Positions 15,114 to 61,389 of a stretch of DNA of 64,000 nt are shown here, in pieces. The notes below the pieces were generated by a model. The model had not been told where the DNA came from and searched no databases. It was given only the letters and a program-made list of their open reading frames with translations. Source of the DNA: Candidatus Obscuribacterales bacterium (GTDB taxonomy: Bacteria; Cyanobacteriota; Vampirovibrionia; Obscuribacterales; Obscuribacteraceae); the NCBI GenBank assembly GCA_965228855.1, contig CBDDIJ010000002.1, positions 1,056,001 to 1,120,000 on the forward strand. The letters are read 5' to 3'. Numbering within the stretch: position 1 is the first letter of the stretch; every line of letters begins with the position of its first letter. A program made the translations under genes and the position numbers.

Positions 15114-15136
15114 GCGGGGGTGTTCTGGGTCTAGCT

Positions 15137-15305
15137 GGGAGGGTGAATCGCTGGAAAGACCCTCTATGGCTGGGTTGTGGTCTTGAAGGGAATACGAAGA
15201 AATATAGTAGGGATTTGGGTGGGAGGATGAATTGAATCTCTGGAAAGGCTCTCTATGGCAAGGTTTTGGACTCGAGGTGAGCACGAAGGAATATAGTAGA
15301 CGATT
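15137..15305 (+). repeat. Degenerate ~89-bp tandem duplication, each unit ending in AATATAGTAG
   Basis: CTGGAAAG.C.CTCTATGGC...ACGAAG.AATATAGTAG beginning at 15151 and 15240. Confidence 0.75.
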
Positions 15306-15313
15306 TTGTTAGC

Positions 15314-15344
15314 GCCACGGTCGAGAAGTCCCGTCGACCGTGGC
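15314..15344 (-). terminator. Stem-loop downstream of the 15376-15639 gene
   Basis: GCCACGGTCGA/TCGACCGTGGC perfect 11-bp stem. Confidence 0.55.
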
Positions 15345-15375
15345 TTTCGCTGGGAGCGTTTATGCTCCCGACAGA

Positions 15376-15639
15376 TTATTTGCGCATGAGCTTGATGACA
15401 CATGCGGCATCGTCGCCGGTCATGTCGGTGCCGAACATATTGCAGCGGCCGTCCTTGGGCGAATCGTAGATGTTTGAAAGCTCGCGCTTCACCGGAAGGA
15501 CAATGCTGTCGTTCGGCGCGAGCACGAGTTTGGCGAGCATGACGTGCACGCGAGTGCGCATGCGGCGATTCGCCTGGGAATTGAACTTCTTGGAGGAGCT
15601 AGGGGAAACGACCGGCGACTTTTTAAACGAGCGAGACAT
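15376..15639 (-). CDS. Small basic hypothetical protein (MSRSxKK...ANRR.R type)
   Basis: GAAGGAGAG RBS before ATG at 15639; 87 aa. Confidence 0.75.
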   Translation of the reverse strand: MSRSFKKSPVVSPSSSKKFNSQANRRMRTRVHVMLAKLVLAPNDSIVLPVKRELSNIYDSPKDGRCNMFGTDMTGDDAACVIKLMRK

Positions 15640-15770
15640 GGCGGACTCTCCTTCTGAGAGCGGCGCAGCCCGCCGGTCCACTGGAACCGGCTTTCAGAGA
15701 TGCGCCCAATCAGAAGAAGGGCAAATGAGTTTTGAAAGACATTCATTTCTCCTTGTGTGGAATCGTTTGG

Positions 15771-16244
15771 TTACTGAAAGAAGCGAACGCGCACCGCGAG
15801 CTTTTCCAGTACCGGAATGGTGAGTGTGGTCAGCACGAGCAAAATCGTGCCGAAGAACGGTTGGTAAATCTCCGGCCAGGTGACCTCGAACGGTCCGCCG
15901 AGCGCGAAGACCCAGACGGTGAAGGAAACCGACGCCGCAATCGCGTGAAATTTGCGCGAGGGTGGCTCGTTCAGAAAGAAGATGTAGGTCGGTTTCAGGC
16001 AGACGTAGAGAGGCGTCAATATCAAGATCGCTACGAACACGACCCAGTAAAGCGGGACTTGGTAGTCGAGGGTCTGGGTTTTGATGACGCCGTCCAGGAA
16101 CATGTACGCTGTCACAAGAGGTCCGGGGATGTAGCGAATGATTTTCTCGAAGTACGAGACTTCGCGGCTGTCCGGCGGAATGATTTTGTGTTTGTTGGGA
16201 CAGTTGGGGTCGCAAACACACGTGCAAGACACAGGGGGTTTCAT
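15771..16244 (-). CDS. Hypothetical membrane protein
   Basis: GGAGG RBS; Y.EKI.RYIP motif and WVFALGGPF; four TM segments; Cys-rich N-terminus. Confidence 0.75.
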   Translation of the reverse strand: MKPPVSCTCVCDPNCPNKHKIIPPDSREVSYFEKIIRYIPGPLVTAYMFLDGVIKTQTLDYQVPLYWVVFVAILILTPLYVCLKPTYIFFLNEPPSRKFHAIAASVSFTVWVFALGGPFEVTWPEIYQPFFGTILLVLTTLTIPVLEKLAVRVRFFQ

Positions 16245-16845
16245 GATGAACCCTCCGGGAGTTAATTGATGGTAAATCCTCGAAGAGGAACAGTGCGTAT
16301 CGAATCGACAGCGGCTCGGACCCGGGCGCCTTTGCGTCGTTTGGCGGTTTCAGTAGTGGAGGCGCTGGCTAGGTTGCTGTTAAATACTCGAGCTCAATGG
16401 TTTCGATACAGATGTCATGCTCATGGTGAGTGTTGTTATGCGATCAAATCCAGCGTTTTGCGGAGAAAATGCAAATCTAATCCGGAAATTTTGCGCAATT
16501 TAGATTGCAAACAGCGCTATGCCAATGGGGGGCGTTATTGCAATATCAGTATCTTCATTTGATTCTGAACTGTTCTGGTCTCTGCTTTCAGATGTCTTCG
16601 ATTTGCCCATGATCGAGTCGGTTCTTGAACCGAGCCCGCTTATCTTTCATTAATTCTCGACCATAGGGCGTCGCTGTTTCAAAATGGTACTACATACAGT
16701 ATTACTGACCCCTCCCTCTGACAACGCTTACAAGCCGCTTTCTGACAGGTATAGATTTGTTTTAAAGTACTCCTGAATGAGTCTCGTTTAATGCTTGAGA
16801 ACGGAATGAGGTATACCTTGCCAATGGTGACAGAAGGAGCCCGAT

Positions 16846-17535
16846 TTGAAATTTTTAGGATGGATAGTTTTCTCCTGTGGTTTGATGTCGTTTATCGAAC
16901 ACCAGGTTCACGCCCGCTTGATGCACCGCAGAAACTTTCTAAGTGAACGTTCGCCAAAGTACAAGCGCGTTTTCGAATCGCACGCTATCGTGCACCATAA
17001 GCACTACTCGAAGATATTTCATGACGAGCCGGTGCCGCCAGGCGAAGACAAAGAGATACGCCTGACTGTTCACAAAGCGCCAATCAAAGGACTGCCCGCA
17101 GCGTTGATCCTCGCCTGCTTCTCGTGGAAAGCGGCGGCAGCATTTACCGCTGTTATAACCGCCCACCATTGGATCTGGAACAAAATCCACCTTGAGATGC
17201 ACAAGCCCGAACAGCGCAAGTTCAGCAAGTGGCCTGTTTACCGCTTTCTCGCTCGCTATCACTGGCTGCACCACAGATATCCGGATAAAAACTTCAACGT
17301 TGTTTTCCCGTTCGCTGATTACGTTCTCGGCACGGTCGCCAAGGCGACGCCTGAGGATGAGCGGGCGATGATTTTGGAGTTCGAGTCAAATCAAGTTGCG
17401 GCGGATGCCGCTGATGCCGTTTCCACGGGCTTGCCTGGCGAAGAACCAGTGGCGTCTGTGTCCGTCGACGCTTCGGTGTCGAATCCGGCGCCACAGCCGG
17501 TTGCTGCCACCGCGACTGTTGACCTGACTGCCTGA
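16846..17535 (+). CDS. Fatty acid hydroxylase/sterol desaturase-like membrane di-iron protein
   Basis: His boxes HARLMH, HAIVHH, HLEMH, HWLHH followed by NFNV..P.ADYVLGT. Confidence 0.8.
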   Translation: MKFLGWIVFSCGLMSFIEHQVHARLMHRRNFLSERSPKYKRVFESHAIVHHKHYSKIFHDEPVPPGEDKEIRLTVHKAPIKGLPAALILACFSWKAAAAFTAVITAHHWIWNKIHLEMHKPEQRKFSKWPVYRFLARYHWLHHRYPDKNFNVVFPFADYVLGTVAKATPEDERAMILEFESNQVAADAADAVSTGLPGEEPVASVSVDASVSNPAPQPVAATATVDLTA

Positions 17536-17631
17536 ATTCAAGCGCAAATTTAAATTTGAAAGATTTTGAGTGGCGCAGCTGTTGATGCTACGATAGGTCC
17601 GAACGACGTTTTCGTAGCGGCTTGGTGAACG

Positions 17632-18522
17632 ATGCCATCAATTCTTTCGGCCGACGATATTATAGAGATTGCCGGCGGGCGGCTGGCGCAGGGTCTGGTA
17701 CCGAGCGAGTCCGGACGAATCGTGACGGACACTCGTCAAGATTTAGAGGGCGCCTGGTTTCTGGCCCTCCAGGGGCAGGTCTACGACGGTCACGATTTCC
17801 TGGGCGATGCTTACTCCGGTGGCGCCATTGGGTGCATTGTCGAGGAGCGTCAGAATTACCCATTGCCTGCCGAAGCGCCTTTCCCGCTCATCGCAGTGCC
17901 GGAGACGTTGATTGCGCTTCGCGATTTGAGCAGAAACTGGCGGCGCCGGTTGGCGCTCAAAATGATTCTTGTCGTCAGCGCCGAGCGTGAGCGGGCATTT
18001 GGTTTAGCGGGCTACACCGCCAAAATCTTGTCTTCACGCTTTCCGACAAAGCTCATCGACTTCAGCACTTCTCCCGGCAATCCGCTCTCTGAGCTAATCG
18101 CGCTCGATGAGTCGACTCAGTTCGTTGTGGCGAGCATGGTGCCGCCTTGTATTGATGATGTTTTGTTCGAGTCCGCAGCGTTGTGTCCGAACATTCTGAT
18201 TTTCACGGACGAGCCTTTCGCGTACATGCGTCTGACCACGACGCCAGAGGAACTTGAGAAAGGCATGATGAATCTTCTGTCCTCAATGGATCGACGACCG
18301 GGTCTGGTGCTGGCTTGTGGAACTGCGTCCGCGGTCGTGCGTGGTTTTGAAATGCCGCAAAACGCTACCTTCAAGGCGTTTCCGGGTGCGGCTTCCAATC
18401 CGCACGTGACCGGCGACGGCGAAGAACACTTTATGCCCAGTGCCGAAGAGAGCTGGTGTGTTGCGGAAGTCTGCAAGGATTGCGGAATTCCGGATGATAT
18501 CATATATGGTGCTTTTGTTTAA
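17632..18522 (+). CDS. MurF N-terminal domain-containing protein, degenerate Mur ligase
   Basis: TDTR, FLALQG..YDGHDF, V.ETL.AL; no GxxGKT P-loop and no C-terminal domain. Confidence 0.7.
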   Translation: MPSILSADDIIEIAGGRLAQGLVPSESGRIVTDTRQDLEGAWFLALQGQVYDGHDFLGDAYSGGAIGCIVEERQNYPLPAEAPFPLIAVPETLIALRDLSRNWRRRLALKMILVVSAERERAFGLAGYTAKILSSRFPTKLIDFSTSPGNPLSELIALDESTQFVVASMVPPCIDDVLFESAALCPNILIFTDEPFAYMRLTTTPEELEKGMMNLLSSMDRRPGLVLACGTASAVVRGFEMPQNATFKAFPGAASNPHVTGDGEEHFMPSAEESWCVAEVCKDCGIPDDIIYGAFV

Positions 18523-18600
18523 TTGGCTGGCAGGATGCGTCTAGCCGCATGGTTAGCGGCAGGAGCGTTATCTGTTGCTGTTAAACCTGCTCCGGTGCCT

Positions 18601-18993
18601 TCACGCCCGTTGTTCTGACGGATGTAAATGCCCTTTGCTGCGCGACACAAACAGGTAGAGCTGTTGAGTGAGCCACATTGTCCCAGGCAGAATGTAGAAA
18701 ACTGCGGCGATCTTTCCGAACGGCAAATTTTTGAGAATTATCGGCACGGCTTCCGGACCTTCCCATTCCAAGCCGTTCTCGTCGATTAAGAGCAGGCTCC
18801 ACTTCGAGCTATCCAGACGCTGAATCAGGTCAGTGGCACGCGGGCTCGTCGAGTCGCGATCGACAAAGACGAAGGATTGCTGCTTGTCCCACCATTTTAT
18901 GAGCGCGCCGAAATTTCGCACGACAGTGCAGCGCTCATCGCAAACGATGGTGAATGATAGGGACTCCTGGCATGCATTTGCGACAGTGTTCAT
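18601..18993 (-). CDS. DCC1-like (DUF393) thiol-disulfide oxidoreductase family protein
   Basis: IVCDERCTVVR (variant of DxxCxxC), G.EA..IL..LP, Y.FVSR. Confidence 0.65.
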   Translation of the reverse strand: MNTVANACQESLSFTIVCDERCTVVRNFGALIKWWDKQQSFVFVDRDSTSPRATDLIQRLDSSKWSLLLIDENGLEWEGPEAVPIILKNLPFGKIAAVFYILPGTMWLTQQLYLFVSRSKGHLHPSEQRA

Positions 18994-19315
18994 GTCAAGT
19001 GCACCTTCCCGGAAATTTTTTGAGTTGGTTAAGTTTAGCATTGGTTCACCTTTCCTGAGAAGCCGGTAGGATCAAATTTTTTGTGTTTTTTGAAAGTTTC
19101 AAAGTGTTCTTGGCAGCATGTTGTCATACTTAATTCTGTTGAATAAACCCTCTGCTTGAAAAGGGTGTTGGCTCAGAAAATGGGCATAACAAGTAAGTCT
19201 AGAGCGAGGATAGGTTGCTCTTTTCGGTCAATAGCACAGTAATCGCTGGAAGATGCTCGGGGTGTCGTTTTCGACTATGCCGGGCTTCTATCTCCATTGT
19301 CGAGGCATCTCTTAC

Positions 19316-22075: not shown

Positions 22076-22196
22076 AGTGTCCGTGTGTCCGTAACTGTTA
22101 CTACTATATGCCCTCGTTAGGGCTGATGGGCGAAAGTTTTACAGAGTAAGGATCCAGGGAGTCGGTCCCTTTAGGGATGACTTGAAAAGTGGTTGT

Positions 22197-22250
22197 TTGG
22201 CTACGCCAAGATGACGGAATTCGCAATTTTCGGCATTCTGGCGTAGACAA
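22197..22250 (+). repeat. 54-bp palindromic repeat, copy 2
   Basis: TTGGCTACGCCAAGATGACGGAATTCGCAATTTTCGGCATTCTGGCGTAGACAA. Confidence 0.9.
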
Positions 22251-22317
22251 CTTTCCCGAGCGGACCGGCCGTTCATCGGAACTGATGATTCGCATGGGGT
22301 GCCAGAGCGTGAGGAAG

Positions 22318-22371
22318 ATGTCTATCCTGCGATGCCAGATTCCGCGAATTCCGTCATCGTGGCGTAGCCAA
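22318..22371 (-). repeat. 54-bp palindromic repeat, copy 3 (inverted relative to copy 2)
   Basis: Reverse complement TTGGCTACGCCACGATGACGGAATTCGCGGAATCTGGCATCGCAGGATAGACAT. Confidence 0.88.
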
Positions 22372-22480
22372 AACGCTTTTTTTCAAGGACTCTCTTAAGT
22401 GTTGATCCTGCAGATGCCGACAGTATGGGGAGTCTGGGCAGATCAACGGAGCTAGATCATATAGTAGGCATGTCCTGGTG

Positions 22481-22523
22481 AAAAAGAGGCACCCAGGCTT
22501 GTTTTGCAACAGGCCTGGGTGCC
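22481..22523 (-). terminator. Intrinsic terminator of htpX
   Basis: GGCACCCAGGCTTGTT/AACAGGCCTGGGTGCC stem with a T5 tract on the minus strand. Confidence 0.75.
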
Positions 22524-22529
22524 GGAAGG

Positions 22530-24396: not shown

Positions 24397-24399
24397 TGT

Positions 24400-24735: not shown

Positions 24736-25829
24736 TTCTGCTGTCGAAAAAAGCGGCTGAAATTACCGTCTAGGTTGTATAGATGGTCGGGTATTTGTGG
24801 AAAAACAGTGACTAATTCGTCGGGCGTTTTTGGCCTAGGTCCAAGTTGTAAAACAGACTGAAGGTCAATGTGTTCGATGTACGGTGCAACGCGCTCGCGG
24901 AGGTCCGGGCCAAACCAACTAATCCATGTCCTCACATCGGGAATTCCGGCCCAATAGCTTTCATTACCAAATCCCCACTTCGTTCCTATGACTTCATTCT
25001 GAGAGTACAGTACGGGCGAATTTACGAGGCCACCCGCATAGATAGCACTTAAGGCGTCGGCAATTTTCGGAATTAAACCAGTTAGAGTATCCAGTTGGTC
25101 GTTCTTGATAGCTTCTAAGCAATTTAATTCTAGAGTGAATGTTGATAGCGGTCTCTCGTTGGAAAGAAGCCGAGATAAGCTGTTCGCGGTAGGAAGGCTC
25201 AGTTTTCCTTCAATGCATGGTTGGTCGGCAGTCCACATAAGAAACCCATCACTCAGCTCTTGTTGTCTGGTGCAAGTTTTGATGAAGCCCTCTAGCCCAT
25301 CTCTTTCATAGTTACCTTGAAAAGGCGGAGCCCCACCGAATCGCCGAGGAAGGCAGAATGACGCTTCATCCTGCAGAATCGATATCACCTTTCTGACTTG
25401 GCTTGTGTTCATACTACCTATCGCAAACCATTTGAGAGTGAGCAAGCAAATTTCTTGTTTGATGTCCTTCCGGAAAGAGAAGACCTTGTTTCTTGGAAAT
25501 AAAAGCTCATTTGTCAGGGGCGCATATAGTAGACCCTGCAGCTGAGATGCTAAATCGCACCCAAACTGTATTGCCTTATCCAGGTACCGATCTGATGATG
25601 TGAGCGTTACTAAAGTATTGAAATTTTCAGCATCGGCGATTGGAACATCCTCCGGTTCAACATTAAGAGAAGGCCAATCGAAATAAAATAGCGAGCGACC
25701 TTCCGAGTCGATAAAATGTAGCTCGGTCATTTCTTCAACTAAAGTTAGGTTGTGATTGCAAGCCACGACTTTAAGAAAAGCCACATCTACTGGCAACTCA
25801 AGATATAAATCGAGCCAAATTATTTGCAT
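24732..25829 (-). CDS. Hypothetical protein in the AT-richer block
   Basis: 365-aa ORF with GAGG RBS before ATG at 25829. Confidence 0.7.
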   Translation of the reverse strand: MQIIWLDLYLELPVDVAFLKVVACNHNLTLVEEMTELHFIDSEGRSLFYFDWPSLNVEPEDVPIADAENFNTLVTLTSSDRYLDKAIQFGCDLASQLQGLLYAPLTNELLFPRNKVFSFRKDIKQEICLLTLKWFAIGSMNTSQVRKVISILQDEASFCLPRRFGGAPPFQGNYERDGLEGFIKTCTRQQELSDGFLMWTADQPCIEGKLSLPTANSLSRLLSNERPLSTFTLELNCLEAIKNDQLDTLTGLIPKIADALSAIYAGGLVNSPVLYSQNEVIGTKWGFGNESYWAGIPDVRTWISWFGPDLRERVAPYIEHIDLQSVLQLGPRPKTPDELVTVFPQIPDHLYNLDGNFSRFFRQQK

Positions 25830-26647: not shown

Positions 26648-26728
26648 GATGCATTAGCCAATATTTCGCCACCTGCTGTTTGGGAAGTATGCGGGGAACA
26701 GCTACTATTAGACGACCTAACTTCTACA

Positions 26729-38365: not shown

Positions 38366-39445
38366 ATGTCCCAAAACGACCGCAACTCGCTTTCCAGCGT
38401 CGAAGTTCGCAAGGCGGCTCCGCAACGCAAATCCGTTACCATCTCTCGCGCTGACCTCGACTGGGCTTCCAGTCAGGGGCTCGTCGGCACCGACCAGGTC
38501 GGCAAGCTGTGGCAAGCACTCGTAGAGCGCTCGGCCGCAACCAACACCGGTGGTCTGAACCTCATCAACCTCGCCTACTACGGCGGCGCCACCATCGTGC
38601 TCATCGCCATGGCGCTGTTCATGGGGCTCGTCACCGCTCAGTACCAGGCTCCTGCGCTGGTCGGCACGTCGCTCGTCTACGGCGCCGCCTTCGTCGCGCT
38701 CGGCTCGCATCTCTTCTTCCGCAAGGGTCTCGAGGTGCCCGGCGGGCTGATGTTCACGCTTGCCGTGGCCATCACGCCGGTCTTCGTGTTCGCGGTCATG
38801 AACATGAACGGCGCCGCACCGCCCAGCACCTCTCAGGAGCTCATCCTCGAGGTGGTGACGGTGGTGGCGTCCGTGGTGGCGCTCACTTTCGTGCGCTTCC
38901 CGTTCCTGACCATGCCGCTGTTCACCGCGTTGTGGCTCATGAGCGTGACGATCACGAGCATGGTTTCGCACGGGCAGTCCTGGTTCTGGGGCAACGAACA
39001 GCTCATCGTCTCGATGGTGTTCGGCGTGCTCATGACTCTCGGCTCGGTCGTCATCGACCGGCGCACGGAGAAGGACTTCGCGTTCTGGGGCTACCTCTTC
39101 GGCGTCTCCAGCTTCTGGCTCGCGCTGACCTTCTTCGATAAGGGCGGACAGCTCGGCATGCTCGGCTACTTCGCCGCCAACATCGTGCTGTTGCTCGCCT
39201 CCGTCGTCCTCCAGCGCCGCATCTTCCTCGCTGCCGGCGGTCTCGGTGCGACCGGCTACCTGATGTACCTTTCGTGGGACATCTTCCAGGACTCGATGAT
39301 GGCTTTCGCCGTCGTGCTTTCGGGCATCGGCGTCGGCGTCATCTTCCTCGGTATCCAGTACCACAAGAACAAGGCTGCCATCGACGCTGCCATCCTGCGG
39401 CTTCTGCCCGCCGGACTGCGTTCGCTGCCGAATCGCCAGGGCTAA
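38366..39445 (+). CDS. DUF2157-like multi-pass membrane protein
   Basis: L..A..QGLV..DQ..LW N-terminus, AYYGGA.IV..AM..F, DFAFWGYLFG; GGAG RBS. Confidence 0.75.
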   Translation: MSQNDRNSLSSVEVRKAAPQRKSVTISRADLDWASSQGLVGTDQVGKLWQALVERSAATNTGGLNLINLAYYGGATIVLIAMALFMGLVTAQYQAPALVGTSLVYGAAFVALGSHLFFRKGLEVPGGLMFTLAVAITPVFVFAVMNMNGAAPPSTSQELILEVVTVVASVVALTFVRFPFLTMPLFTALWLMSVTITSMVSHGQSWFWGNEQLIVSMVFGVLMTLGSVVIDRRTEKDFAFWGYLFGVSSFWLALTFFDKGGQLGMLGYFAANIVLLLASVVLQRRIFLAAGGLGATGYLMYLSWDIFQDSMMAFAVVLSGIGVGVIFLGIQYHKNKAAIDAAILRLLPAGLRSLPNRQG

Positions 39446-39457
39446 ACGCCCGAAACC

Positions 39458-39483
39458 GGAAGGCTCGGCTCCCCGAGCCTTCC
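39458..39483 (+). terminator. Stem-loop after the DUF2157-like gene
   Basis: GGAAGGCTCGG-CTCC-CCGAGCCTTCC perfect 11-bp stem, no U-tract. Confidence 0.55.
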
Positions 39484-39583
39484 ACCCCCACCGACTTGCT
39501 ACTATATAATATCGGAAGGACTCCATCTCCAAGCCGAGTCCCAGCGAGGCATTCCCGTCCTGCGGTCAAGAGCCGGGGTGTTT

Positions 39584-39637
39584 TTGGCTACGCGTGAATG
39601 ACGCTTTTTCGAAAATCCGGCAACGAGGCGTAGACAA
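39584..39637 (+). repeat. 54-bp palindromic repeat, copy 4
   Basis: TTGGCTACGCGTGAATGACGCTTTTTCGAAAATCCGGCAACGAGGCGTAGACAA. Confidence 0.92.
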
Positions 39638-39728
39638 GTCTTCCTACTATATAGTACCGAGTCTGCTCTGGCTCAAAAGTGAGTGCCGTTCAGGGGTTGC
39701 TGGGTTGGGACTTAAGTCCGGGTTGTTT

Positions 39729-39782
39729 TTGGCTACGCGTGAATGACGCTTTTTCGAAAATCCGGCAACGAGGCGTAGGCAA
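39729..39782 (+). repeat. 54-bp palindromic repeat, copy 5 (direct repeat of copy 4, 145-bp period)
   Basis: Identical to copy 4 except one base (GTAGGCAA). Confidence 0.92.
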
Positions 39783-39941
39783 AATGGCTTTTGCGCGCCT
39801 CGAGGTTGCTATGCGAATGCCTGAAACGTACTGCCCAAGCGGGTTAACGCAGAAGTAGGGCTATGCAAGAATATAGTAGACGATATGGGGAGGTTCGGGA
39901 TGGTGGTATATTCGTTTGGTTCTGATCATTGGGTGAGGTTT

Positions 39942-40346
39942 ATGCCCAAAATTTTGGTGGTCGAAGACAGTCCGATTAACCAGAAGGTGATGACCTACTT
40001 CCTCGAATCCAAGGGTTTCGAGTGCGACCTGGCAACGAGTGGGGCTCAGGCTTTGACGCTCGTTCATACTAACGAATATGACTTGATCTTCCTCGATTTG
40101 CGCATTCCGAATCTTGACGGTTTCTCTGCTGCTCGTGCCATTCGCGAGACGGGCTGCACCGTTCCCATCATCGCGGTGACGGCGAGCGCCATGCCCGAGG
40201 ATGAGAAGAATGCGATGGAGTCAGGCATGAATGCGTTTATGACTAAGCCGTTCTCGCGGGCGGATTTCGATTCGGCAATCGCAATGTGGCTCAAGCCGAG
40301 GCAAGGGACTGAAACCGAGTCTGCCGGCTCGATGGCGGATAGTTAG
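39942..40346 (+). CDS. Single-domain response regulator (CheY-like receiver)
   Basis: ILVVEDSPINQ, DLIFLDLRIPNLDG, IIAVTA, KPF. Confidence 0.92.
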   Translation: MPKILVVEDSPINQKVMTYFLESKGFECDLATSGAQALTLVHTNEYDLIFLDLRIPNLDGFSAARAIRETGCTVPIIAVTASAMPEDEKNAMESGMNAFMTKPFSRADFDSAIAMWLKPRQGTETESAGSMADS

Positions 40347-45499: not shown

Positions 45500-46630
45500 A
45501 TGAAGAGAGCGCAAATTCTCTTGATTCTTGCAGTTTGCTTCGGCGTCTCAAATGCCGAGGCGAAGGGACCGGGCGGCCAGCATGGAGGCGGCCAGGTTCA
45601 CCATGGAGGTGGGAACGGACCTCGTGTGCAGCCGCATGTTCCGCGCGTGCAGCCGAACATCCCGCGGACGCAGCCGCATGTTCCGCGCGTGCAGCCGAAC
45701 ATCCCGCGGACGCAGCCGCATGTTCCGCGCGTGCAGCCGAACATCCCGCGTGTGCAGCCGCATGTTCCGCGCGTGCAGCCGAACATCCCGCGGACGCAGC
45801 CGCATGTTCCGCGCGTGCAGCCGAATATTCCGCGCACGCAACCGCATGTTCCCCGCGTGCAGCCGAATATTCCGCGCACGCAACCGCATGTTCCCCGCGT
45901 GCAGCCGAACATCCCGCGCACGCAGCCGCATGTTCCGCACGTGCAGCCGAACATTCCGCGCCCGCAGCCGCAGGTTCCGCACGTGCAGCCGAACATCCCG
46001 CGCCAGCAGCCGAATGTTCCGCGCGTGCAGCCGAACATCCCGCGCCAGCAGCCGCATGTTCCGCACGTGCAGCCGAATCTGCCGAATCGCCTTCCGCACA
46101 ATTTGCCTCCAGTCCACGTGGGGCGCCCGAATCAGATTCCGCAAAATGTGCGTCCGTATCCGGTTCGCTGCGTGCCTGATCGGCAGCCGGTGCATTACCG
46201 AAACTATCGCCCGCCCGTCGTGCAGAACAATTTCTGTGCGCCTGTCTACGGTCGATACACCGGTCGGTACAATTCGCCGGTGAGAAACAGTTTGTTTAAC
46301 ACCGGGTTCTGGTTTGGCGGAACGTGTTATTCCGCAAACCCGTACTTTTCGTACGGCAACTACTGTCCGACCAGCTGGTTTTACTTCGGTAACAACTGCT
46401 GGTTTCGACCGGGTAGTGGTTACTCTTATTCGCCTCCAATCGGCTTCAACGACACCATCACGGTCGTCGTCGAAGAGCAGTACACCGAGATGGAGCTAGA
46501 CCCGTTTCTCGGCATTGAAGTGCCGGTGACCAAGACAGTCACCTGGTATTACAACGCCTACTACGACGCAGGAACGGGTTGGTACGGGTACACCGACTGT
46601 CATGGTCAATTCCATTGGCTTCAGTGGTAG
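45500..46630 (+). CDS. Exported Pro/Gln/Arg-rich heptad-repeat protein with aromatic/Cys-rich C-domain
   Basis: Signal peptide (AEA) after ATG at 45500; PRVQPNI/PRTQPHV repeats. Confidence 0.8.
   Translation: MKRAQILLILAVCFGVSNAEAKGPGGQHGGGQVHHGGGNGPRVQPHVPRVQPNIPRTQPHVPRVQPNIPRTQPHVPRVQPNIPRVQPHVPRVQPNIPRTQPHVPRVQPNIPRTQPHVPRVQPNIPRTQPHVPRVQPNIPRTQPHVPHVQPNIPRPQPQVPHVQPNIPRQQPNVPRVQPNIPRQQPHVPHVQPNLPNRLPHNLPPVHVGRPNQIPQNVRPYPVRCVPDRQPVHYRNYRPPVVQNNFCAPVYGRYTGRYNSPVRNSLFNTGFWFGGTCYSANPYFSYGNYCPTSWFYFGNNCWFRPGSGYSYSPPIGFNDTITVVVEEQYTEMELDPFLGIEVPVTKTVTWYYNAYYDAGTGWYGYTDCHGQFHWLQW
45620..46081 (+). repeat. Coding tandem repeat, 22 x 21 bp with 42-bp higher-order period
   Basis: CCGCGCGTGCAGCCGAACATC alternating with CCGCGGACGCAGCCGCATGTT. 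Confidence 0.92.
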
Positions 46631-53507: not shown

Positions 53508-53595
53508 GCTCTGTGTCTCTTCGAGACTATCTGCTTGACCGGCCGTGGGAACGTTACTGTTCTGGTCTCTGCTGTCCTGGGGGAACGCAGGGTCC

Positions 53596-54519
53596 TCAGT
53601 GGCTCTGAGACTTACTCTGCGCGAGTTGCTTTTCGAATTTGTGTTTGTCTGAAACTGCGATCGAACAGGTCGGATCAATGCGGAGCGCCTGATCGATGTC
53701 CTCTATCGCTTGTTGGTAGTTGCCTAGCTCCGCGTTTACCTGAGCGCGACTGTGGTAGAAGTCTTCGCGGTTGCCGTTGTTCGAGATGGCTTGTGTATAG
53801 TTTTGCTCTGCCTCTCTCCATTCCTTACGCTTCTGGTGCAGGTTTCCGAGTTCGAAGTAGGCTTGAGGGCAGCTAGACTGTTTGACCGCGGTTAGCAAAT
53901 CGGCTTTCTCGTTTTCCGCGTTGCCGCGGTCGCGCCAGTAGATTGCTCTTTCGTGATAGGCCAACTCTTTGCTGTTTGAACTCGAGGAGCTTGAAATTGC
54001 CTGGGTGTAGTTTTTCTCGGCATCCGCATAGTCTTTGCGAGCTTCCGAAACGGCTGCCAGACCGGCATAGCCGGTGACGAATTTTTCTTTATCGAGGGCT
54101 TTGTTGAAGTCGTCTCTCGCGCGAGCGTAGTCGCCTTTCTTGTAGTAGATCCAGCCTCGCTCCGCATAAACCTGGTGCGCAAGGCATGCATCGCCGCAGC
54201 AGGCGAAGTTAAAAAAGCCCGGAGTTTTATCGCTAATAGCAATCGCACGGTTGATGCTGTCCAGGGCTTCATCGAGTTTTCCGGTTCGCCTCAGGCAATA
54301 CGCCAGGTTCTTTAGGCACAGTGCGTCGTCTTTGTGAATCGGCTGTGTAAGCGCTTCTTTGTATGCCGTGATGGCCTGGTCGAACTTTTGATTGCGCCGG
54401 TAGTAGTCCGCTTGCGAGTTTTGGCCGTCGTAAATACTCCAGCCAACGCCCGCCGCGAGGGGAACGACAAACAGTCCCCCAATCAAAAGTATGCGCGCCA
54501 GACTCGTCCGTTTCTGCAT
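53596..54519 (-). CDS. Membrane-anchored TPR protein
   Basis: N-terminal TM segment followed by multiple canonical TPRs. Confidence 0.88.
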   Translation of the reverse strand: MQKRTSLARILLIGGLFVVPLAAGVGWSIYDGQNSQADYYRRNQKFDQAITAYKEALTQPIHKDDALCLKNLAYCLRRTGKLDEALDSINRAIAISDKTPGFFNFACCGDACLAHQVYAERGWIYYKKGDYARARDDFNKALDKEKFVTGYAGLAAVSEARKDYADAEKNYTQAISSSSSSNSKELAYHERAIYWRDRGNAENEKADLLTAVKQSSCPQAYFELGNLHQKRKEWREAEQNYTQAISNNGNREDFYHSRAQVNAELGNYQQAIEDIDQALRIDPTCSIAVSDKHKFEKQLAQSKSQSH

Positions 54520-54629
54520 CTCGCAATTATATCTGAACCCTTGTCTACTATCGAATACCGTGTAAGTCGCACCCGAAAAGCCGCTATGGCACTGGGTCTA
54601 CAGCGGCGCTACTCATAACGCCGACTTCC

Positions 54630-54683
54630 ATGTCTACGACAGAATGCCGAATTCGGAGAAAAGCGTCATTCTGTCGTAGACAA
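54630..54683 (-). repeat. 54-bp palindromic repeat, copy 6 (16-bp perfect arms)
   Basis: ATGTCTACGACAGAATGCCGAATTCGGAGAAAAGCGTCATTCTGTCGTAGACAA on the + strand. Confidence 0.88.
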
Positions 54684-54771
54684 AATTGACGGACCGCGTT
54701 CGCGCCTCCAAGTTTATTCCGCCCGTTAAACCGTTTTGCGAAATTGCTGGAGTGCATTACCCGGAGCCGGT

Positions 54772-57700
54772 TTAAAGCTCTGCCATGCAGGTCACCTGTG
54801 GTTTCGGGTGACGGCAGAACTGGCTGCCGCCGGACTGCAGGTGCATCAGCACAGCTGTTGTTTTCAGCAGTTGCTTTGCTGTTCGTCTGGCGTGTGGCTG
54901 ATTCGATTGCATGAGCTCGCGCAGCGGAAGTATTGCAGACATCGCTGAGGGAATCGAATATTGGCTACTGAAGGCTTTTAAACCGTTCTCGAGCGACTGC
55001 GACGAAACGTACCGGTGACTGATCGCATCAGCCGGGTTAATCTCTGCCAGGCTGCCAATCGAATCCTTTGCGATCACAGCGCTTTCGCCCGGCAATACTT
55101 TGATGCGCTTGCCGCCAGCGGTGACGCTCACGGAATTGCTGTTCTGATCGTGCAGATTGTAGACTGCAATGCCGTCGGAGAAGGCGAGCACAAGAGCGAT
55201 AGAGCCTGCACCGACCTTTACCGATCCGAATTGCGTTTCAATACATCTGTCCTTTTCCGGAGCGGCAAGAATGCTTCCCCTCTGTAGGTTGAAGCTAGAC
55301 GCGGATGTGAAGCCGGTTTCGAGGATTCCCGGGATAGCACCACTTTCGAGTTCCGTTTCGCTCTTCCAGCCTTTCTTGAATTTGGTACCAAATTCGGTGG
55401 CGGTGAGAATGGGCGACGACGAACCGGAGATTGTGTTTATCAAACCTATTTCGCCCAAGGAAAACGCGTGTGCGCCTGTCTGTCCGCCTGCAATCTCAAG
55501 GAGCATCTCGGCGTTTTGAATTTGAGAATCAAATGTGTTTGTTAAACCGACTGAAATTGCAGGTTGAATCTCAGGCAGAACCGAGAGAGAGTCATTCGAT
55601 GAAACACCCGCACTGGCTTGGCTTGCAAGCACCTGCCCGTAATTAGCACCTCGGCGCGCCACGGTATTTGTGGCGGACAGCGTCGGTGCCGGAGCGGGTG
55701 GGTCGGCCGTAATTGAGACAGCGTCGTTTACTATGATCGCGCCTGGACCTGCTTTGCCAGCACTGAAGATGACATTGCCATTGATTAGGTTTATTGTGCT
55801 CGAACCGTTAGTAGTTATGCCGTTATTGAAGAAGACCGTTCCTCCGGAACCGTTAATCGTTACGCCTGAAGGAGTTGTTCCTGTCACCAATGGTGGTGGC
55901 AAGGTTCCGATTACGAATTGCACAGTACCTCCGCCGATAGAAGTTGAAAAGCTTGCGACAGAAGACAGAAAGCCCAGAGTGATAGAGGAGCCTTTCCCCT
56001 TGCCCAGGTTGTTGAGCGTGATTTCGCCATCGGTGGAAGTTATGCTGGCAAATGAGTTTAGATTCATGGCGCCACCGCCAGTGATGATAGTCACTGACTT
56101 GCCCGTCACTCCGGCGATGTTGATTCCGGCTGATGCCGAGATGTTGACGTCTCCTCCGCCTGCTACAGTTCCCAATTCCAGCGTTGTTTTCTTTGCCAGG
56201 CTTGCGATGTTGATGGCGCCGGATGAGCCAGCAAAAGCATTCGCTATTAGGTTAGTCGTTTGAACTGCCAGGGGCACGGCGCTGCTACCCAACGCGCCTC
56301 CTAGACTACTATCAAAGTTGACGGAACTTGCCGGACTTTCAGTGGTCAGGATTTTCACCTTTGTAGATGCTTGAGTGATATCTCCTGCTACCGCCTGCAG
56401 AGCGATTGAATTGGTTGATTTTGTTGAGCCTATGCTGGTGTTTAAGACAATTGCACCACTCTTTATGGCGATGGTCAGAGCCGAACTCAGTTTTGCGTTG
56501 ACGGTCACAAGATCGTCTGAAGTCAAAGATACGTTGCCTTTAGAGGTGCTCTCCACAAAATTGAGAGGACCAGCTGCCGAATTATTCGCGCTCACGTCGC
56601 CTGCGGCGTTCAGCGAGAGGTTGATTGCAGCGGTCTTGATGGGGGTGGCGAGACTTCCGATAGTTCCGGCGTCTGCAAACAAAACAATCGTGCCTGCAGA
56701 TAGCCCGCTCGAGGCCGGATCGTTCTGTATGGAAGAGCCAGCTCCTTTGCCTGTGCTTATTTCAATTTTGCCGTCATTACTGGTAGTGACACTTCCGGCT
56801 GCACCGAGGTTGATGATACTGTCGACCCCGGTGCTTGTGAGTATGACATTGAAACCGCTGATAGCGTTGTTGATCTGAATTGCGCCGGTCGATTCGAAAA
56901 TAAACTCTCCGGCGGTAGAGCCGGAAGCGCCCAGAGTGACCGCGGCCGCAGTATTGGAGAGGTTTACGCTGTCGCCACCATTGGCGGTGATGGTTTGAGC
57001 GCTGACGCCGAGTGCCTTCTTGCCGCCAATCACTCCGGTTTGCGTCGAGAGATTGAGGGTATTCGCTGTAATCGATTTCTTGCTTGTAATATCACCGGTG
57101 CCTGTAACGGTCAAAGTGATCTGGCTGGTAGTCGCGTTGCCCAGTACGTTGCCGAGAGTTATACTTCCATTGTTCGCACTGAATGCGATACTATCGAAAC
57201 CGAGAAGATCTCTTGAGAGTGTCACACCGCCACCATTATTGGTGACAGTCAGGTCGCCGGCTGAGCTGCCATTGGCTATCACGGTACCAAGAATTGCGTT
57301 TGTGCCCTTCTTCGCGCCGAACTCAAAGGCAGTGGAACTGTTGGATTGAAGAACCACATTGCCACTTGCTCCGCTATTGCTGCCACCGCTCACGTCGAGA
57401 TCGCCTGTGATTAGAAGGGCTCCTGGTCCGCTCTCGCCGGCAACCAGCGTGACATTAGTGCCGCCGGCGTCAGCCGCGAACGGGCTGATATTCAGTGCGT
57501 TTGTAGCGACGGACAGGTTGCCGCCGGTTATGATACTGACGTTGCTTTGTGAGAGGATTTGGCTTCCGGCGCTGATTGAGAACTGTCCGTTAGCTGTTCC
57601 GATCGTCAACGGCGCCGTGCCCAGCTGATGCAGCGATAGGGAGCCGGCTCCGTCCCCCTGTCTCACACTTAAATTGACATTCTGTGTCGCGTCCGCGACC

Positions 57701-60700
57701 AGTTGTCCGGCTTCGATTGATATAACTCCGCCTGTTCCGAGGGCGGTAGTGCCGGCGTGAACGGCGCCGTTGCTGATGGTGACAATCTGGTTTGCTGCTG
57801 CTTTGAAGTTGATGTTTCCGCCGTTGGCTCCAAACGATCCGGTGGCGGAAAGCAGATAATCACTTCCTAGCGAAACGTTTGTTTGTCCGCCACGAAGTTC
57901 GAGTGTGATCGAACCGCCGGCGCCTCCGTCGATGCCGTCAGCATAGAGCGCTAGAGGAGCCAACCCCGTGATGGAAATGTCGCTTGCTTTGAGGGTCAGG
58001 GCACCGCCGTTGAAACCGGAAGTCCCTTGCACGCTCAACAAATTGGTGGGCAAGTGGATGTCTCCATTACCGGCGTCAAAGAAGAGAGTTCCGCCTCTGC
58101 CGTTGCCGGGCGCGTAAAGGATGTTGCTTAGCGAGTTGATGTTGATGTCTTGATTTGAGATGAGGTAGATTGTTCCACCGTTCGTTGTTCCGTTTGCCGA
58201 GATCGAGTTGACGGAGTTTGTGCCGGCGCTGCCGATGTTGAGCGTGGTGCTGCCGAGCGCAGTTATATAAGCTGTTCCGCCGCTGCCGGATGGAGAGGAG
58301 GCCGTTAGATTGTTGAGGTGGACGTTGTTGCCCGCGAGGACATAAATGCCGGCTCCGACGGCTTTGAGGTCGTTTGCTGATATATCGGCGGTATTCAACG
58401 TCGAGGTAGTGTTAAACGGATCGCCAGAGAAAATCTGGGCTACCTGTAGACTGATGTTTATGTTGCCTGATGGCGCTACATATGGTTGTGCTGTCTGCAG
58501 CTGCACTCCACCGGGACCGAGTGCAGGCAATGGGCTGGGATTCGAACCGGTAGAGTCGATATCTCCTACCGATATGGCGGTTCCTGAGGTTTTGCCGGCC
58601 ACAATTTTGACTGTTCCATCGAGGCCGCTGCCGTTTGTTCCTGAAAGGATCGGCACATTGGTAGGAACCCTGATGTCGCCGGAGTTGTCACTGCCTGCGA
58701 ACGCTGCGAGCGTGATACCGAATGTGGAACCAGTTGTAACTGGTGCGCTGCGAAGTTCCGTTATCGGATTTGTTTCAAAATCGATTTTCCCTCCGGTCGC
58801 GGATGCGCCGGTTATGCTTACGCTGTCGCCGTTTGTGGTGAATTCGGCTCCGGCAAAAATGGTCAATGCACCGCTCTGCAGAGTTGTTGCTGAAGTTTTA
58901 ATCGCCAATCCGGGAGCCGCGGATACAATGTCATGGCCGGAGAACATGCCGATGCCGCCTGGCGCTAGAACATCACCGTAAAGGGAAATTGTGTCGCCTG
59001 CGGCAAGACCAATACCGAGAGATGTGGCGGTTGACTGCAGAACGCCGAGAGCGTCTATTGTCGAATCCGTAGCAACTGAGATTCTGCCCGATGACATGAC
59101 ATCGCCGTTGATCACGATGTCCGCATTGCCAGGGTTCACAAAGCTTCCGACCAGGAAGTTGCCGGTCGTAATCGCGCCAGCCGAGTTGATGGTCATTACG
59201 GTGGACGAGTTTCCCAGAAATTCGGGATTTCCGTTGGAGATGAAGACGTTGCCGGCGCCGGTTCCGCCACTGTGACTGATACTACCGATGTTGATTCCAA
59301 TCCCTGAAGTTGCGCCGGCGGCGATTGAAACTAAACCATTTACGCCAGTGCCATTGCCGCTGGCGTCGATATTGCTTCCACTTGGAAGGAGTATGTTGCC
59401 TGTGCTTGCGTTGATGCCGTATGCCGCCAGGATTATGTTTCCTCCGGCATTGTTCCCTGCTGTGGAGTTGCTGTTGATTGCTAATGTTGCACCAGCACTG
59501 TTGAAATCGATGCTGCCGCCGGTGGCGCTAGCGCCTGTGAAGGAGATGCTGCCGGTCGTTGGTGTACCGGGAGGGAGTGAGGTCGTCTGTTCGGCCAGGT
59601 TGCCTGTGACGTTGGCGCCGGCGACGATAGTGATATCGTAACCCTTGCCTGCGCCATCCTGGGCTTGAATCAGGCTGACTCCTGAGGTCGCGACGATGCT
59701 TCCACTTGCTACGATGGCGAGTGCTTCTCCGACCGAGATGTCACCGGTCAAAGTGATGTTGCCTGCAGCGTTGAAGTAGGTGGGATCACCGGTCAAGCAT
59801 TGCTGGCCTATGATGAGATTATCCGTATTGGCATTGACATGAACAGCGGTGCCCGATGAAACAACTTCGCCGGTAAGTTTTTCTACATTGACATCGGCCA
59901 AGCCATTTCCGGCATTGATCAACAATCTGCGCGAAAGGAGATCGCCACCACTGATGGTGGTATTGGCTGAACCGGTGTAGGCTGCGGATCTGAGGGCTAT
60001 GTCTCCGTTGGATGCGGAGAGCACGCCTCCGTTGTTTTCGACATGAAGGGGCTGTGAGTTAAATGAGTCTAGAACGATGTTTCCGGACTGCGATGAGATT
60101 GTTCCGCTGTTGGATATGTTTTTAGATTCAAGTGATATGTCGTGCACAGCCGAGATGTTTCCGCCGTGATTGCTTAGATTGCCACCGGATTTGATGGCAA
60201 GACTGCCGGAGCTGCTAATCGTGCCCGCGTTGTCGAAATCAGCCAAAGTGGACATGGTGAGGTCAACTGTCGATGCTCTGGAGCGGTCGATAGTTGTTAT
60301 CGTTCCGGTTGCCTGGTTGTCGATGCTCTGGGCGGATATGACTGCCTGTCCGCTGTTGCCGCGAACGGTTTGGCTCACAGTTCCGTAGTTGATGAGGTTG
60401 CCAGAAATGTCTATTTGCGAGCGGCTGTTGACTCTATCAACTGATTGAACAGCTTCCGGGATGACCACGTTGTGGATTGAATTTGCCTGTCGGCCGCTTG
60501 TTAGGTTTGAAAGCGAGAATGTGCCACCTGTAGCCTTACCGCTTTGGTCAACTGTGAGCGTCTGTCCTCTGCCCGTTTGTGCCTGTTGGAATGAAACAAA
60601 CTCTGCAGCGGAAACGCTGTCACCCTGTTGGATGGTCTTTATTGAGTCTCCCACCTGAATGGTGACGGACGGACCGCGCCTGAACATATCTTGCTGGATC

Positions 60701-60975
60701 ACAATGGAAGCGAGGCTTGAACTGAGATCTAGATCGATCGGTGTTACCGAAGGGGCACTGTATGTGTTTATGACCGGCTGGTTGCGGCTTTCGTTTCTCA
60801 AATTCAGACGAGCCTGCGCGTTCTGCAGTTTCAAATTGTGGAAACCTACATGCGGCACGCGACCTTGGCGATCGAACTGATTGTCGTGTGCTAGTGCCGG
60901 CGCGGCAAATTGCTGGATTAGCACAGCCGAAGAGAACAGTTTCACTCCAAGCGAAAGCGACGTATCTTTATTCAT
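54772..60975 (-). CDS. Giant exported filamentous-haemagglutinin-like beta-helical repeat protein
   Basis: ~2070 aa, signal peptide (ALA), G/N/S/T-rich repeats (GGNIIL, GGSITL, NSGTISS), distinct globular C-terminal domain. Confidence 0.8.
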   Translation of the reverse strand: MNKDTSLSLGVKLFSSAVLIQQFAAPALAHDNQFDRQGRVPHVGFHNLKLQNAQARLNLRNESRNQPVINTYSAPSVTPIDLDLSSSLASIVIQQDMFRRGPSVTIQVGDSIKTIQQGDSVSAAEFVSFQQAQTGRGQTLTVDQSGKATGGTFSLSNLTSGRQANSIHNVVIPEAVQSVDRVNSRSQIDISGNLINYGTVSQTVRGNSGQAVISAQSIDNQATGTITTIDRSRASTVDLTMSTLADFDNAGTISSSGSLAIKSGGNLSNHGGNISAVHDISLESKNISNSGTISSQSGNIVLDSFNSQPLHVENNGGVLSASNGDIALRSAAYTGSANTTISGGDLLSRRLLINAGNGLADVNVEKLTGEVVSSGTAVHVNANTDNLIIGQQCLTGDPTYFNAAGNITLTGDISVGEALAIVASGSIVATSGVSLIQAQDGAGKGYDITIVAGANVTGNLAEQTTSLPPGTPTTGSISFTGASATGGSIDFNSAGATLAINSNSTAGNNAGGNIILAAYGINASTGNILLPSGSNIDASGNGTGVNGLVSIAAGATSGIGINIGSISHSGGTGAGNVFISNGNPEFLGNSSTVMTINSAGAITTGNFLVGSFVNPGNADIVINGDVMSSGRISVATDSTIDALGVLQSTATSLGIGLAAGDTISLYGDVLAPGGIGMFSGHDIVSAAPGLAIKTSATTLQSGALTIFAGAEFTTNGDSVSITGASATGGKIDFETNPITELRSAPVTTGSTFGITLAAFAGSDNSGDIRVPTNVPILSGTNGSGLDGTVKIVAGKTSGTAISVGDIDSTGSNPSPLPALGPGGVQLQTAQPYVAPSGNINISLQVAQIFSGDPFNTTSTLNTADISANDLKAVGAGIYVLAGNNVHLNNLTASSPSGSGGTAYITALGSTTLNIGSAGTNSVNSISANGTTNGGTIYLISNQDININSLSNILYAPGNGRGGTLFFDAGNGDIHLPTNLLSVQGTSGFNGGALTLKASDISITGLAPLALYADGIDGGAGGSITLELRGGQTNVSLGSDYLLSATGSFGANGGNINFKAAANQIVTISNGAVHAGTTALGTGGVISIEAGQLVADATQNVNLSVRQGDGAGSLSLHQLGTAPLTIGTANGQFSISAGSQILSQSNVSIITGGNLSVATNALNISPFAADAGGTNVTLVAGESGPGALLITGDLDVSGGSNSGASGNVVLQSNSSTAFEFGAKKGTNAILGTVIANGSSAGDLTVTNNGGGVTLSRDLLGFDSIAFSANNGSITLGNVLGNATTSQITLTVTGTGDITSKKSITANTLNLSTQTGVIGGKKALGVSAQTITANGGDSVNLSNTAAAVTLGASGSTAGEFIFESTGAIQINNAISGFNVILTSTGVDSIINLGAAGSVTTSNDGKIEISTGKGAGSSIQNDPASSGLSAGTIVLFADAGTIGSLATPIKTAAINLSLNAAGDVSANNSAAGPLNFVESTSKGNVSLTSDDLVTVNAKLSSALTIAIKSGAIVLNTSIGSTKSTNSIALQAVAGDITQASTKVKILTTESPASSVNFDSSLGGALGSSAVPLAVQTTNLIANAFAGSSGAINIASLAKKTTLELGTVAGGGDVNISASAGINIAGVTGKSVTIITGGGAMNLNSFASITSTDGEITLNNLGKGKGSSITLGFLSSVASFSTSIGGGTVQFVIGTLPPPLVTGTTPSGVTINGSGGTVFFNNGITTNGSSTINLINGNVIFSAGKAGPGAIIVNDAVSITADPPAPAPTLSATNTVARRGANYGQVLASQASAGVSSNDSLSVLPEIQPAISVGLTNTFDSQIQNAEMLLEIAGGQTGAHAFSLGEIGLINTISGSSSPILTATEFGTKFKKGWKSETELESGAIPGILETGFTSASSFNLQRGSILAAPEKDRCIETQFGSVKVGAGSIALVLAFSDGIAVYNLHDQNSNSVSVTAGGKRIKVLPGESAVIAKDSIGSLAEINPADAISHRYVSSQSLENGLKAFSSQYSIPSAMSAILPLRELMQSNQPHARRTAKQLLKTTAVLMHLQSGGSQFCRHPKPQVTCMAEL

Positions 60976-61096
60976 AGATAACTCCAATTAAAACTGCCCC
61001 AATCGCCGTGACTCGGACACAGGGTGCCCAGGCGAGATTGAGGTGGTGAGCGCAACGTGCAGATTATATTACTATGTCGCGAAACTTTCAAAACTA

Positions 61097-61180
61097 CTAC
61101 TATAGAGCTCCGCACAAGACGTGACTCGAAACAGGGCTGCTACTATAGAGCTCCGCACAAGACGTGACTCGAAACAGGGC
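61097..61180 (+). repeat. Perfect 41-bp direct repeat x2 (43-bp period)
   Basis: CTACTATAGAGCTCCGCACAAGACGTGACTCGAAACAGGGC at 61097 and 61140. Confidence 0.92.
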
Positions 61181-61224
61181 ATACGCCGAGACTCACACTC
61201 CTCGCCCTCCTTCGCGGCATTCGA

Positions 61225-61278
61225 TTGTCTACGACCGAATGCCGGAATTCGCGAAATCCGTCGCTCTCCCGTAGCCAA
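61225..61278 (-). repeat. 54-bp palindromic repeat, copy 7
   Basis: Reverse complement TTGGCTACGGGAGAGCGACGGATTTCGCGAATTCCGGCATTCGGTCGTAGACAA. Confidence 0.88.
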
Positions 61279-61389
61279 AGCCCGTCTTTTCGAGGCAACC
61301 GAGGAGGTTAAAACGTCGAAAGCCCATCTAGGCGTGCGCGGACGGCTTTGTGAGTATATGTCGGCATATAGTAGGCGGGGTGTGAGGGG

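Follow-up and report, generated by a model that had tools for sequence, protein, structure and literature searches.

The window analysed here is a stretch of 64,000 nucleotides from the genome of a Candidatus Obscuribacterales bacterium (contig CBDDIJ010000002.1, positions 1,056,001 to 1,120,000; hereafter G000:C2:1056001-1120000, with G000 for the source genome and G007 for its sister genome). It contains copies of a 52-bp core (TG..CA) accompanied by inward-pointing CTACTAT boxes (Table 1). A sequence-only reading of the window had claimed nine box-core pairs at fixed distances of 85, 96 or 97 bp, counted to a core of 54 bp. All nine pairs were found in place, and the distances measured to the 52-bp core are 86 bp (four pairs), 97 bp (three pairs) and 98 bp (two pairs). 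The CTACTAT motif is present in 14 copies in the window against 1.2 expected, and none of 100 shuffles reached 14. When cores were counted by a regular expression throughout G000, 215 were found as compared with 4 in a reversed-genome control, and a hidden Markov model gave 174–212 core loci depending on the cut-off. An inward box was located 72–112 bp from 162 of the 215 cores (on one side of 122 and on both sides of 40), and 53 cores have none.

The genome-wide histogram of CTACTAT positions around the cores showed peaks at about 75, 86–88, 96–100 and 107–111 bp, with 7 distances at 74–76 bp, 90 at 84–88 bp, 92 at 96–100 bp and 11 at 107–111 bp. The best phase coherence of the box-core distances was at 11–11.6 bp, and the spacing classes, proposed earlier to be about one helical turn apart, recur across the genome in steps of about 11 bp. 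These helically phased distances back the view of a composite element of defined geometry. Around 39 strict cores, outward boxes were scarce (4 as compared with about 60 inward). The core is made of two 19-bp dyads (YGKC-N11-GMCR) with centres 33 bp apart, and between them lies a 14-bp centre of a T-tract, SS and an A-tract; its quarter-sites alternate among a few alleles. The Rfam search of the window returned no match, and the exact core pattern had no match in genome, metagenome or viral collections, from which the organism's own and very near genomes were perhaps excluded. A core variant ending in TGTCAAT forms 73-bp tandem arrays on C2 (16 clusters) and C3 (5 clusters) of G000 and also in G007. 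These arrays are mostly without boxes, their linker holds CTAG/GTAG, and the paralogue gene that flanks them was found in G007 and not in G000.

Table 1. Box-core elements and associated differences in the window (window positions; last row in contig coordinates of G000).
Feature	Position	Strand	Remark
Core	15061..15112		two 19-bp dyads around 14-bp A/T-rich centre
CTACTAT box	15204..15210	-	98 bp from core 15061-15112
Box-anchored 89-bp duplication	15211..15299	-	second box 15293-15299; absent in G007
Box	22101..22107	+	97 bp from core 22198
Core	22198..22249		G007 holds an additional 156-bp box-arm-core copy at this site
Second core	22319..22370		pair with the 22198 core sits between convergent genes
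Box	22461..22467	-	97 bp from core 22319-22370
Box	39499..39505	+	86 bp from core 39585
Core	39585..39636		first copy of 145-bp tandem unit
Box of second tandem unit	39644..39650	+	86 bp from core 39730
Core	39730..39781		second copy of tandem unit
Box	39873..39879	-	98 bp from core 39730-39781
996-bp segment with TPR gene (53596-54519)	53542..54537	-	absent in G007; breakpoint 7 bp outside box 54545
Box	54545..54551	+	86 bp from core 54631
Core	54631..54682		
Box-anchored 43-bp duplication	61094..61139	+	extra box 61097-61103
Box	61140..61146	+	86 bp from core 61226
Core	61226..61277		core of complete two-armed 235-bp element (61140-61374)
Box	61368..61374	-	97 bp from core 61226-61277
IS110-family insertions in cores	C2:774697, 858558, 1120767; C2 ~197.8k, ~987.6k; C5 ~861k, ~1462k		1120767 is 767 bp past window end

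Three further CTACTAT copies of the window are without a core (25526–25532, 26702–26708 and 56306–56312), and the first two enclose a region that differs from G007. The window also contains an open reading frame (ORF) built of 21/42-bp tandem repeats (45500–46630) and another of 2,000 aa (54772–60975), both without a Pfam match.

The candidate protein partner came to light in G007, where an insertion carries an ORF of 256 aa with inverted arrays of a core variant on both sides. The partner gene of the main core in G000 is unannotated, lies outside the window at C2:103074-103847 and encodes a protein of 257 aa. The order at this locus is box, 97 bp, core, gene, core and box, and it is conserved in G007. 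This gene differs between both genomes by 26 synonymous and 5 non-synonymous codon changes and is under purifying selection. The family members are 230–300 aa long and comprise a phospholipase D (PLD) nuclease domain with a single HKD, a CxxC linker and a HipB/XRE helix-turn-helix (HTH). The nuclease signature of the PLD superfamily, HxK(x4)D(x6)GSxN, is present in the family; HxKxxxxD..GSxN, E133 and CxxC are invariant family-wide, and H107, K109, D114, S122, N124 and E133 are invariant in 21 aligned homologues. The PLDc_2 and HTH_3 profiles match in the family and several members exceed the PLDc_2 cut-off. The closest profile for the nuclease domain is that of Mokosh, with all 21 members matching MkoC (best E 8e-14), and the HTH resembles HipB and the controller proteins of restriction-modification (R-M) systems. 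A sequence search of the PDB gave only weak HTH matches, and the ESM Atlas only generic HTH clusters (≤0.82). Five paralogues were found in G000, one of which, at 918 kb, is without the HKD residues. The four other than C2:103074 adjoin other repeat families, among them a CTGCAA double dyad of 18+15+18, whose 44 matches are grouped into 11 clusters. When the paralogue loci of G000 and G007 were compared, three were shared and three differed, and three orthologous sites carry a paralogue gene in one genome and plain elements in the other, once between the identical two boxes. A second HTH domain was noticed in the family members P0004, P0010, P0014, P0017, P0047 and P0060. Two Ku genes are present in G000.

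The elements of G000 and G007 differ mainly by tandem duplications, which were present in 57 of 183 boxed arms. After five array expansions were dropped, 52 primary duplications were counted, and 44 of these start at −15 to +4 of the box and extend inward by 22–327 bp, where about 10% would be expected. In 74 events chosen for having both boxes, the junction at which the copy continuation gives way to the outer flank was mapped at about −12 to −5, and the outer flank beyond it showed only ~50% match. Furthermore, substitutions between the two genomes reached 19–24% at −10 to −1 of the box as compared with 2–4% at −40 to −16, and the same stretch just outside the box is also a hot zone of indels. 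Among 69 listed differences, 13 of which were inspected, three are clean gene-sized indels whose ends lie 7, 15 and 17 bp outside a box. Box-core elements also enclose a short-chain dehydrogenase gene at G007:C3:5836-7582 (L060), a site occupied in G000 by a 102-bp array; this is a possible case of gene capture. Reads confirmed the assembly at the gene locus in a single contig set, which may come from the source sample.

The conservation of the arms between box and core was monitored in 39 orthologous G000/G007 arms, which were obtained from 124 tried. The box was intact in all 39, with one substitution in 312 positions 1–8, while the arm interiors had diverged by 8–22% with gaps of ≤1%; the divergence at fourfold sites was 12.7%. 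The retention of the box and the arm length while the filling drifts indicated that both are under selection. The spacers had been described as unrelated in sequence and length-keeping; the length is indeed kept, but the arms have in common a weak, phased consensus anchored on the box, with MGTAT at 15–19, CCSAAA at 29–36 and GGG/TTTSGG at 50–60. This periodic signal is found inside the box only, spanning +15 to +65, and is weak outside. An A-tract 8–14 bp from the core occurs in 50 of 78 long arms and in 6 of 80 short arms. The CTYGAAAA motif reported at positions 81–88 of the 96-bp arms proved to be a small-sample coincidence, being present in 4 of 78 long arms. In two cases, the same arm sequence was met again at a distant locus (80k/864k and 177k/942k). 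Base-pair covariation was not seen in the arms and was only weak in the core, folding was like that of shuffled sequences (z −0.14 for the core and −0.3 to +0.7 for the arms), and no hairpin was found at the box. Having no covariation and a weak box-anchored consensus, the arms are read as bendable double-stranded DNA and not as RNA. The phased motif fits the earlier suggestion of DNA looping or wrapping, which the arms would undergo around the bound protein, whereas the suggested small RNA running into a hairpin is not supported, as the arms lack covariation and a −35 signal and the predicted folding of the core does not exceed that of shuffled sequence.

The pairing of gene and dyad was also searched beyond these two genomes. 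Full-length members occur in 30 of 107 genomes of the order, as counted from the listed matches, and the other 25 matches are mostly PLD-only; proteins of ~930 aa with this PLD domain occur in the same bacterial family. In a GTDB-wide scan, HTH-reaching matches among the best 79 of 390 were mostly Obscuribacterales/Melainabacteria records, with a handful under other titles. When representatives at 50% identity were searched, 353 proteins matched at E≤1e-30. A double dyad (spacing of 32–34 bp and score of at least 29 of 36) adjoins 17 of 37 homologous loci (12 of 23 in a first set and 5 of 14 in a held-out set) and none of 112 controls, namely 31 PLD-only loci, 21 distal windows and 60 random genes. 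Nearly each of the flanking double dyads has its own sequence, and their A/T centres are similar in kind. Further matches to the flanking dyad lie scattered in each of the five genomes searched (54 matches in G013, 18 in G042, 6 in G005, 5 in G041 and 4 in G016), and the backwards controls gave none. Boxes of the same kind go with cores of unrelated sequence: CTACTA(T/A) occurs in 4 of 10 arms of G041 at ~45–75 bp, CTACTAC is found at 53–55 bp in 2 of 12 arms of G005, and the same box lies upstream of both genes in G006. The satellite of the GATTGC family of G013 (loci L105, L206 and L208) is another one, GAAAGAAAAA..TTTTTCTTWCAA, whose end lies ~12 bp from the core, and the loci L226–L235 of G042 have four dyads in a row instead of two, with TACTAC inside the linkers.

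Taken together, the results show a real repeat system that is under selection and paired with an enzyme, and that most likely represents a new class of mobile element. The specific interpretation that we favour, with somewhat better than an even chance, is a repeat-enzyme system similar to RAYT/REPIN that uses PLD phosphohistidine chemistry, in which the core is bound and the DNA is nicked just outside the box. The elements would be non-autonomous partners of the C2:103074 protein. Two HTH dimers would occupy both 19-bp dyads on the same helix face, and the phased arm would bend back and bring the box within reach of the PLD dimer, with permitted lengths ~11 bp apart. By analogy with BfiI, which forms a 5′-phosphohistidine intermediate with a free 3′-OH and re-joins ends by transesterification (PMC2475615), the CTACTAT strand may be nicked ~5–12 nt outside the box, with the 5′ end held as phosphohistidine and the 3′-OH freed. 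The nick would usually be resealed. Occasionally, the 3′-OH could serve as the primer for strand displacement in the direction of the core. Joining of the newly made 3′ end to the held 5′ end would then produce a duplication with its start at the box and no fixed end point or, in rare cases, a copy elsewhere. A nick outside the box followed by inward displacement and joining would explain duplications with a fixed start and a variable end, and repeated cutting and repair would explain the mutation hot zone. We infer all the chemical steps, that is, binding, cutting and strand transfer by the PLD-HTH protein. The earlier suggestion of a mobile-unit end that is bound at one place and cut at another gains support from the phased distances, the box-edge breakpoints and the candidate nuclease, while the cutting itself is presumed.

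Several observations weigh against this interpretation. The comparison with a close relative, which had been proposed as a check of the breakpoints, did place them at the box edge but gave no fresh empty/filled site for a boxed element, as each of the 51 G000 clusters that were mapped is matched by a cluster in G007. An excision joint at the gene locus was not found in four runs, and the two read sets were without coverage of the gene or the elements. The duplications within arrays are not independent of each other, and the gap counts of the hot zone are dominated by a few long indels. The G000 protein is under the Pfam PLDc_2 cut-off (24.6 versus 27 bits). As many as 20 of the 37 homologous loci are without a high-scoring double dyad, and an inward CTACTA within 800 bp was present at 11 of 37 homologous loci and 7 of 31 controls. 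No box was seen near the G013, G016 and G042 cores or in most B and C arrays of G000. The arms are mostly unrelated between loci, so copying must be rare or ancient. In addition, the retention of boxes at all 39 old sites is not explained by selfish copying alone; old boxes may be retained through a host benefit, or a boxless core may be harmful while the enzyme is present.

The region C2 66–1125 kb, a 1.06-Mb domain around oriC (dnaA at 793 kb, minimum of the skew at 789 kb), constitutes 13% of the genome and holds 176 of the 215 cores and all five paralogue genes. With gene orientation taken from a simple, unvalidated in-house gene caller, cores occupy 45 of the 89 gaps between convergent genes in this domain, as compared with 53 of 360 for tandem and 10 of 123 for divergent genes (convergent versus rest, p 6e-14). 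Only 2 of 174 cores lie inside called genes, the placement being extragenic and mostly downstream of genes, and a boxed arm points to the 3′ end of a gene in 114 cases and to a gene start in 41. Of the 202 boxed arms, 122 have their box on the lagging strand, a bias that may follow from gene orientation. Such a distribution agrees with the possibility that the protein is a host-domesticated organiser or relaxer of the origin domain, which would wrap the arms and nick and reseal them as a site-specific swivel (or recruit gyrase) where convergent transcription builds supercoils, the duplications being accidental. The purifying selection on boxes, the position of all five G041 cores within −390 to +154 kb of dnaA, the scarcity of ParB_N (found in 3 of 41 genomes of the class, with chromosomes of 5–9 Mb) and the single GyrA/ParC-type gene of G000 speak for this, and the arm periodicity at +15 to +65 resembles the flanks of the gyrase motif (PMC6379681). 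That motif is symmetric about the cut, whereas the arm motif is one-sided. Furthermore, the box-core element pattern is present in only 2 of 41 relatives, full-length homologues were counted in only 30 of 107 genomes of the order, half of the six paralogue loci differ between G000 and G007, 3 of 4 cores of G016 are >1 Mb from dnaA, and G000 has two type IA topoisomerases. We consider the swivel improbable, albeit by a narrow margin the best of the alternatives; it is compatible with a PLD-driven repeat system as its later stage.

Other features of the origin region were recorded. A de novo repeat search of 350 kb near dnaA in six other relatives found nothing, and the cognate repeats there are few and located elsewhere. 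No perfect parS was found in G000, where one non-canonical ParB_N is encoded on C4, and no canonical DnaA box was found within C2 785–815 kb. The DnaA open frames are unusually long in the genus (570–680 aa; C2 793 kb in G000 and relatives). The origin domain (C2 77–1125 kb), whose right edge is sharp, has a GC3 of 0.63–0.74 as compared with ~0.55 in the rest of the genome, and the difference holds throughout the genus (orthologues in G001, G002, G004 and G005). The possibility that the elements produced this GC-rich domain was rejected, as orthologues in element-free genomes share the GC3. Stretches of high GC3 (0.8–0.9) were noticed at G000:C2:1-61k and on C4; the C2 stretch is missing at the syntenic junction of G007, and they may represent an island or bin contamination.

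The box could also be a −10 promoter element (TATAGT outward or TACTAT inward), with the core-bound protein as an autoregulator or activator in helical phase, the copies spreading passively and the breakpoints arising from polymerase collisions at the transcription bubble. The −10 consensus is TATAAT, with which TATAGT agrees at 5 of 6 positions, and activator sites typically show ~11-bp steps like those found here. The mutation hot zone coincides with the expected place of an outward start site, the HTH is like that of HipB and R-M controller proteins, and box and core lie upstream of the gene in G000, G005 and G006. However, neither a −35 hexamer nor a TG extension was present with the −10 in 151 arms, and there were no sigma-70 matches at 39350–40000. 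The excess of arms facing gene 3′ ends and the dyad downstream of the gene in many homologues also disagree with it, and the invariant catalytic residues would be left without a role. This explanation was judged unlikely, marginally more so than the swivel.

The known system nearest to the proposed one is REPIN-RAYT. Both have hundreds of extragenic, mostly 3′ or convergent repeats whose ends are conserved and whose spacer drifts in sequence at constant length, a cognate gene in low copy number that is flanked by repeats of its own family, several families of gene and repeat in one genome, tandem arrays and IS110 parasites (10.1101/2021.07.10.451892, PMC3733652, PMC11208160). The IS110-family elements in the cores are of two kinds, one present at the core end in three copies of 1254 bp that are identical, the other in a half-site in four related copies, and they are likened to IS621 in E. 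coli REPs. RAYT is an HUH Y1 enzyme, whereas here a PLD/HKD enzyme is joined to an HTH, and no HUH Y1 transposase (PF01797) was detected in G000, which is 95% complete. Likewise, the GTAG-footed hairpin of REPINs was not found, its place being taken by double-stranded dyad pairs and a distant box in helical phase, with gene turnover between close relatives and origin-proximal clustering in addition. IS630 duplicates TA in CTAG, and the element ends can formally be written CTA|CTATA..TATAG|TAG. The notion that these are REP/MITE-type repeats of the ordinary kind, mobilised by an already known transposase (RAYT, IS630-like or IS110) next to which the PLD-HTH gene is a bystander, could draw on these ends, on GTAG in both box and core, on the 3′-extragenic location and on the IS110 elements in cores, but it is largely refuted and very improbable, since there is no Y1_Tnp in the genome and no hairpin at the box, the breakpoints are 5–12 nt outside the box and not at TA, the interiors are heterogeneous, the IS110s are seven insertions into pre-existing cores and absent at the checkable orthologous G007 sites, and the gene-dyad pairing recurs with changing sequence.

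Type IIS enzymes BfiI/BmrI and Nuc are alike in having a single HKD per chain, a separate DNA-binding domain and cutting away from the binding site, the latter being predicted here. The system described here differs from BfiI/BmrI in its XRE HTH, its 52-bp operator pair, a predicted cut ~100 bp away and targets that are the host's own repeats; no methyltransferase neighbour of the PLD-HTH gene was noticed, although no dedicated search was made. From Mokosh MkoB/MkoC, an anti-phage helicase-PLD system, it differs by the HTH fusion, the tie to dispersed cognate repeats and the lack of a helicase (257-aa protein with neighbours that are not helicase-sized). The layout resembles the pMV158-family origin, which has a nic of 5′-TACTACG/AC, a RepB bind locus 84 bp downstream (~85 bp on the 3′ side) of high affinity and bent DNA between (PMC1851628). 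The differences are the lack of a hairpin at the box, breakpoints 5′ of the motif and not inside it, inverted dyads as against direct repeats and ~200 chromosomal copies; the best match to a Rep_OBD (PF01719) initiator in G000 had E 0.72 and contained stops. Other candidates were rejected: near-identical copies with junctions at a TA duplication, as in IS630/Tc1-type MITEs, were not seen; the periodic flanks on both sides of the cut that mark strong gyrase sites/BIME-2 were not found, the signal being one-sided; and, for a recombinase att/res site, the 17 tyrosine-recombinase matches were not linked to the elements.

The enzymes known for transposition and site-specific recombination work by DDE, DEDD, HUH, tyrosine or serine chemistry, and to our knowledge BfiI-type transesterification has not been tied to any natural mobile element so far. 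No description of this gene-repeat pairing was found in the literature, subscription journals not being covered. With chances that we see as evenly balanced, this may be the first PLD-driven mobile-repeat system, in which a 257-aa protein would pick by its HTH among interchangeable 52-bp operator pairs, nick and re-join by its HKD through phosphohistidine ~100 bp away, copy its own sites, capture or drop neighbour genes and be kept in the Obscuribacterales origin domain, possibly as a site-specific swivel. If true, a metal-independent, histidine-based enzyme would constitute a new class, foreshadowed by the in vitro transesterification of BfiI. The different proteins paired with different operators at the loci examined would provide a natural code for HTH-DNA recognition, and an independent origin of REPIN-like repeat populations would offer a second case for asking why hosts keep such repeats.

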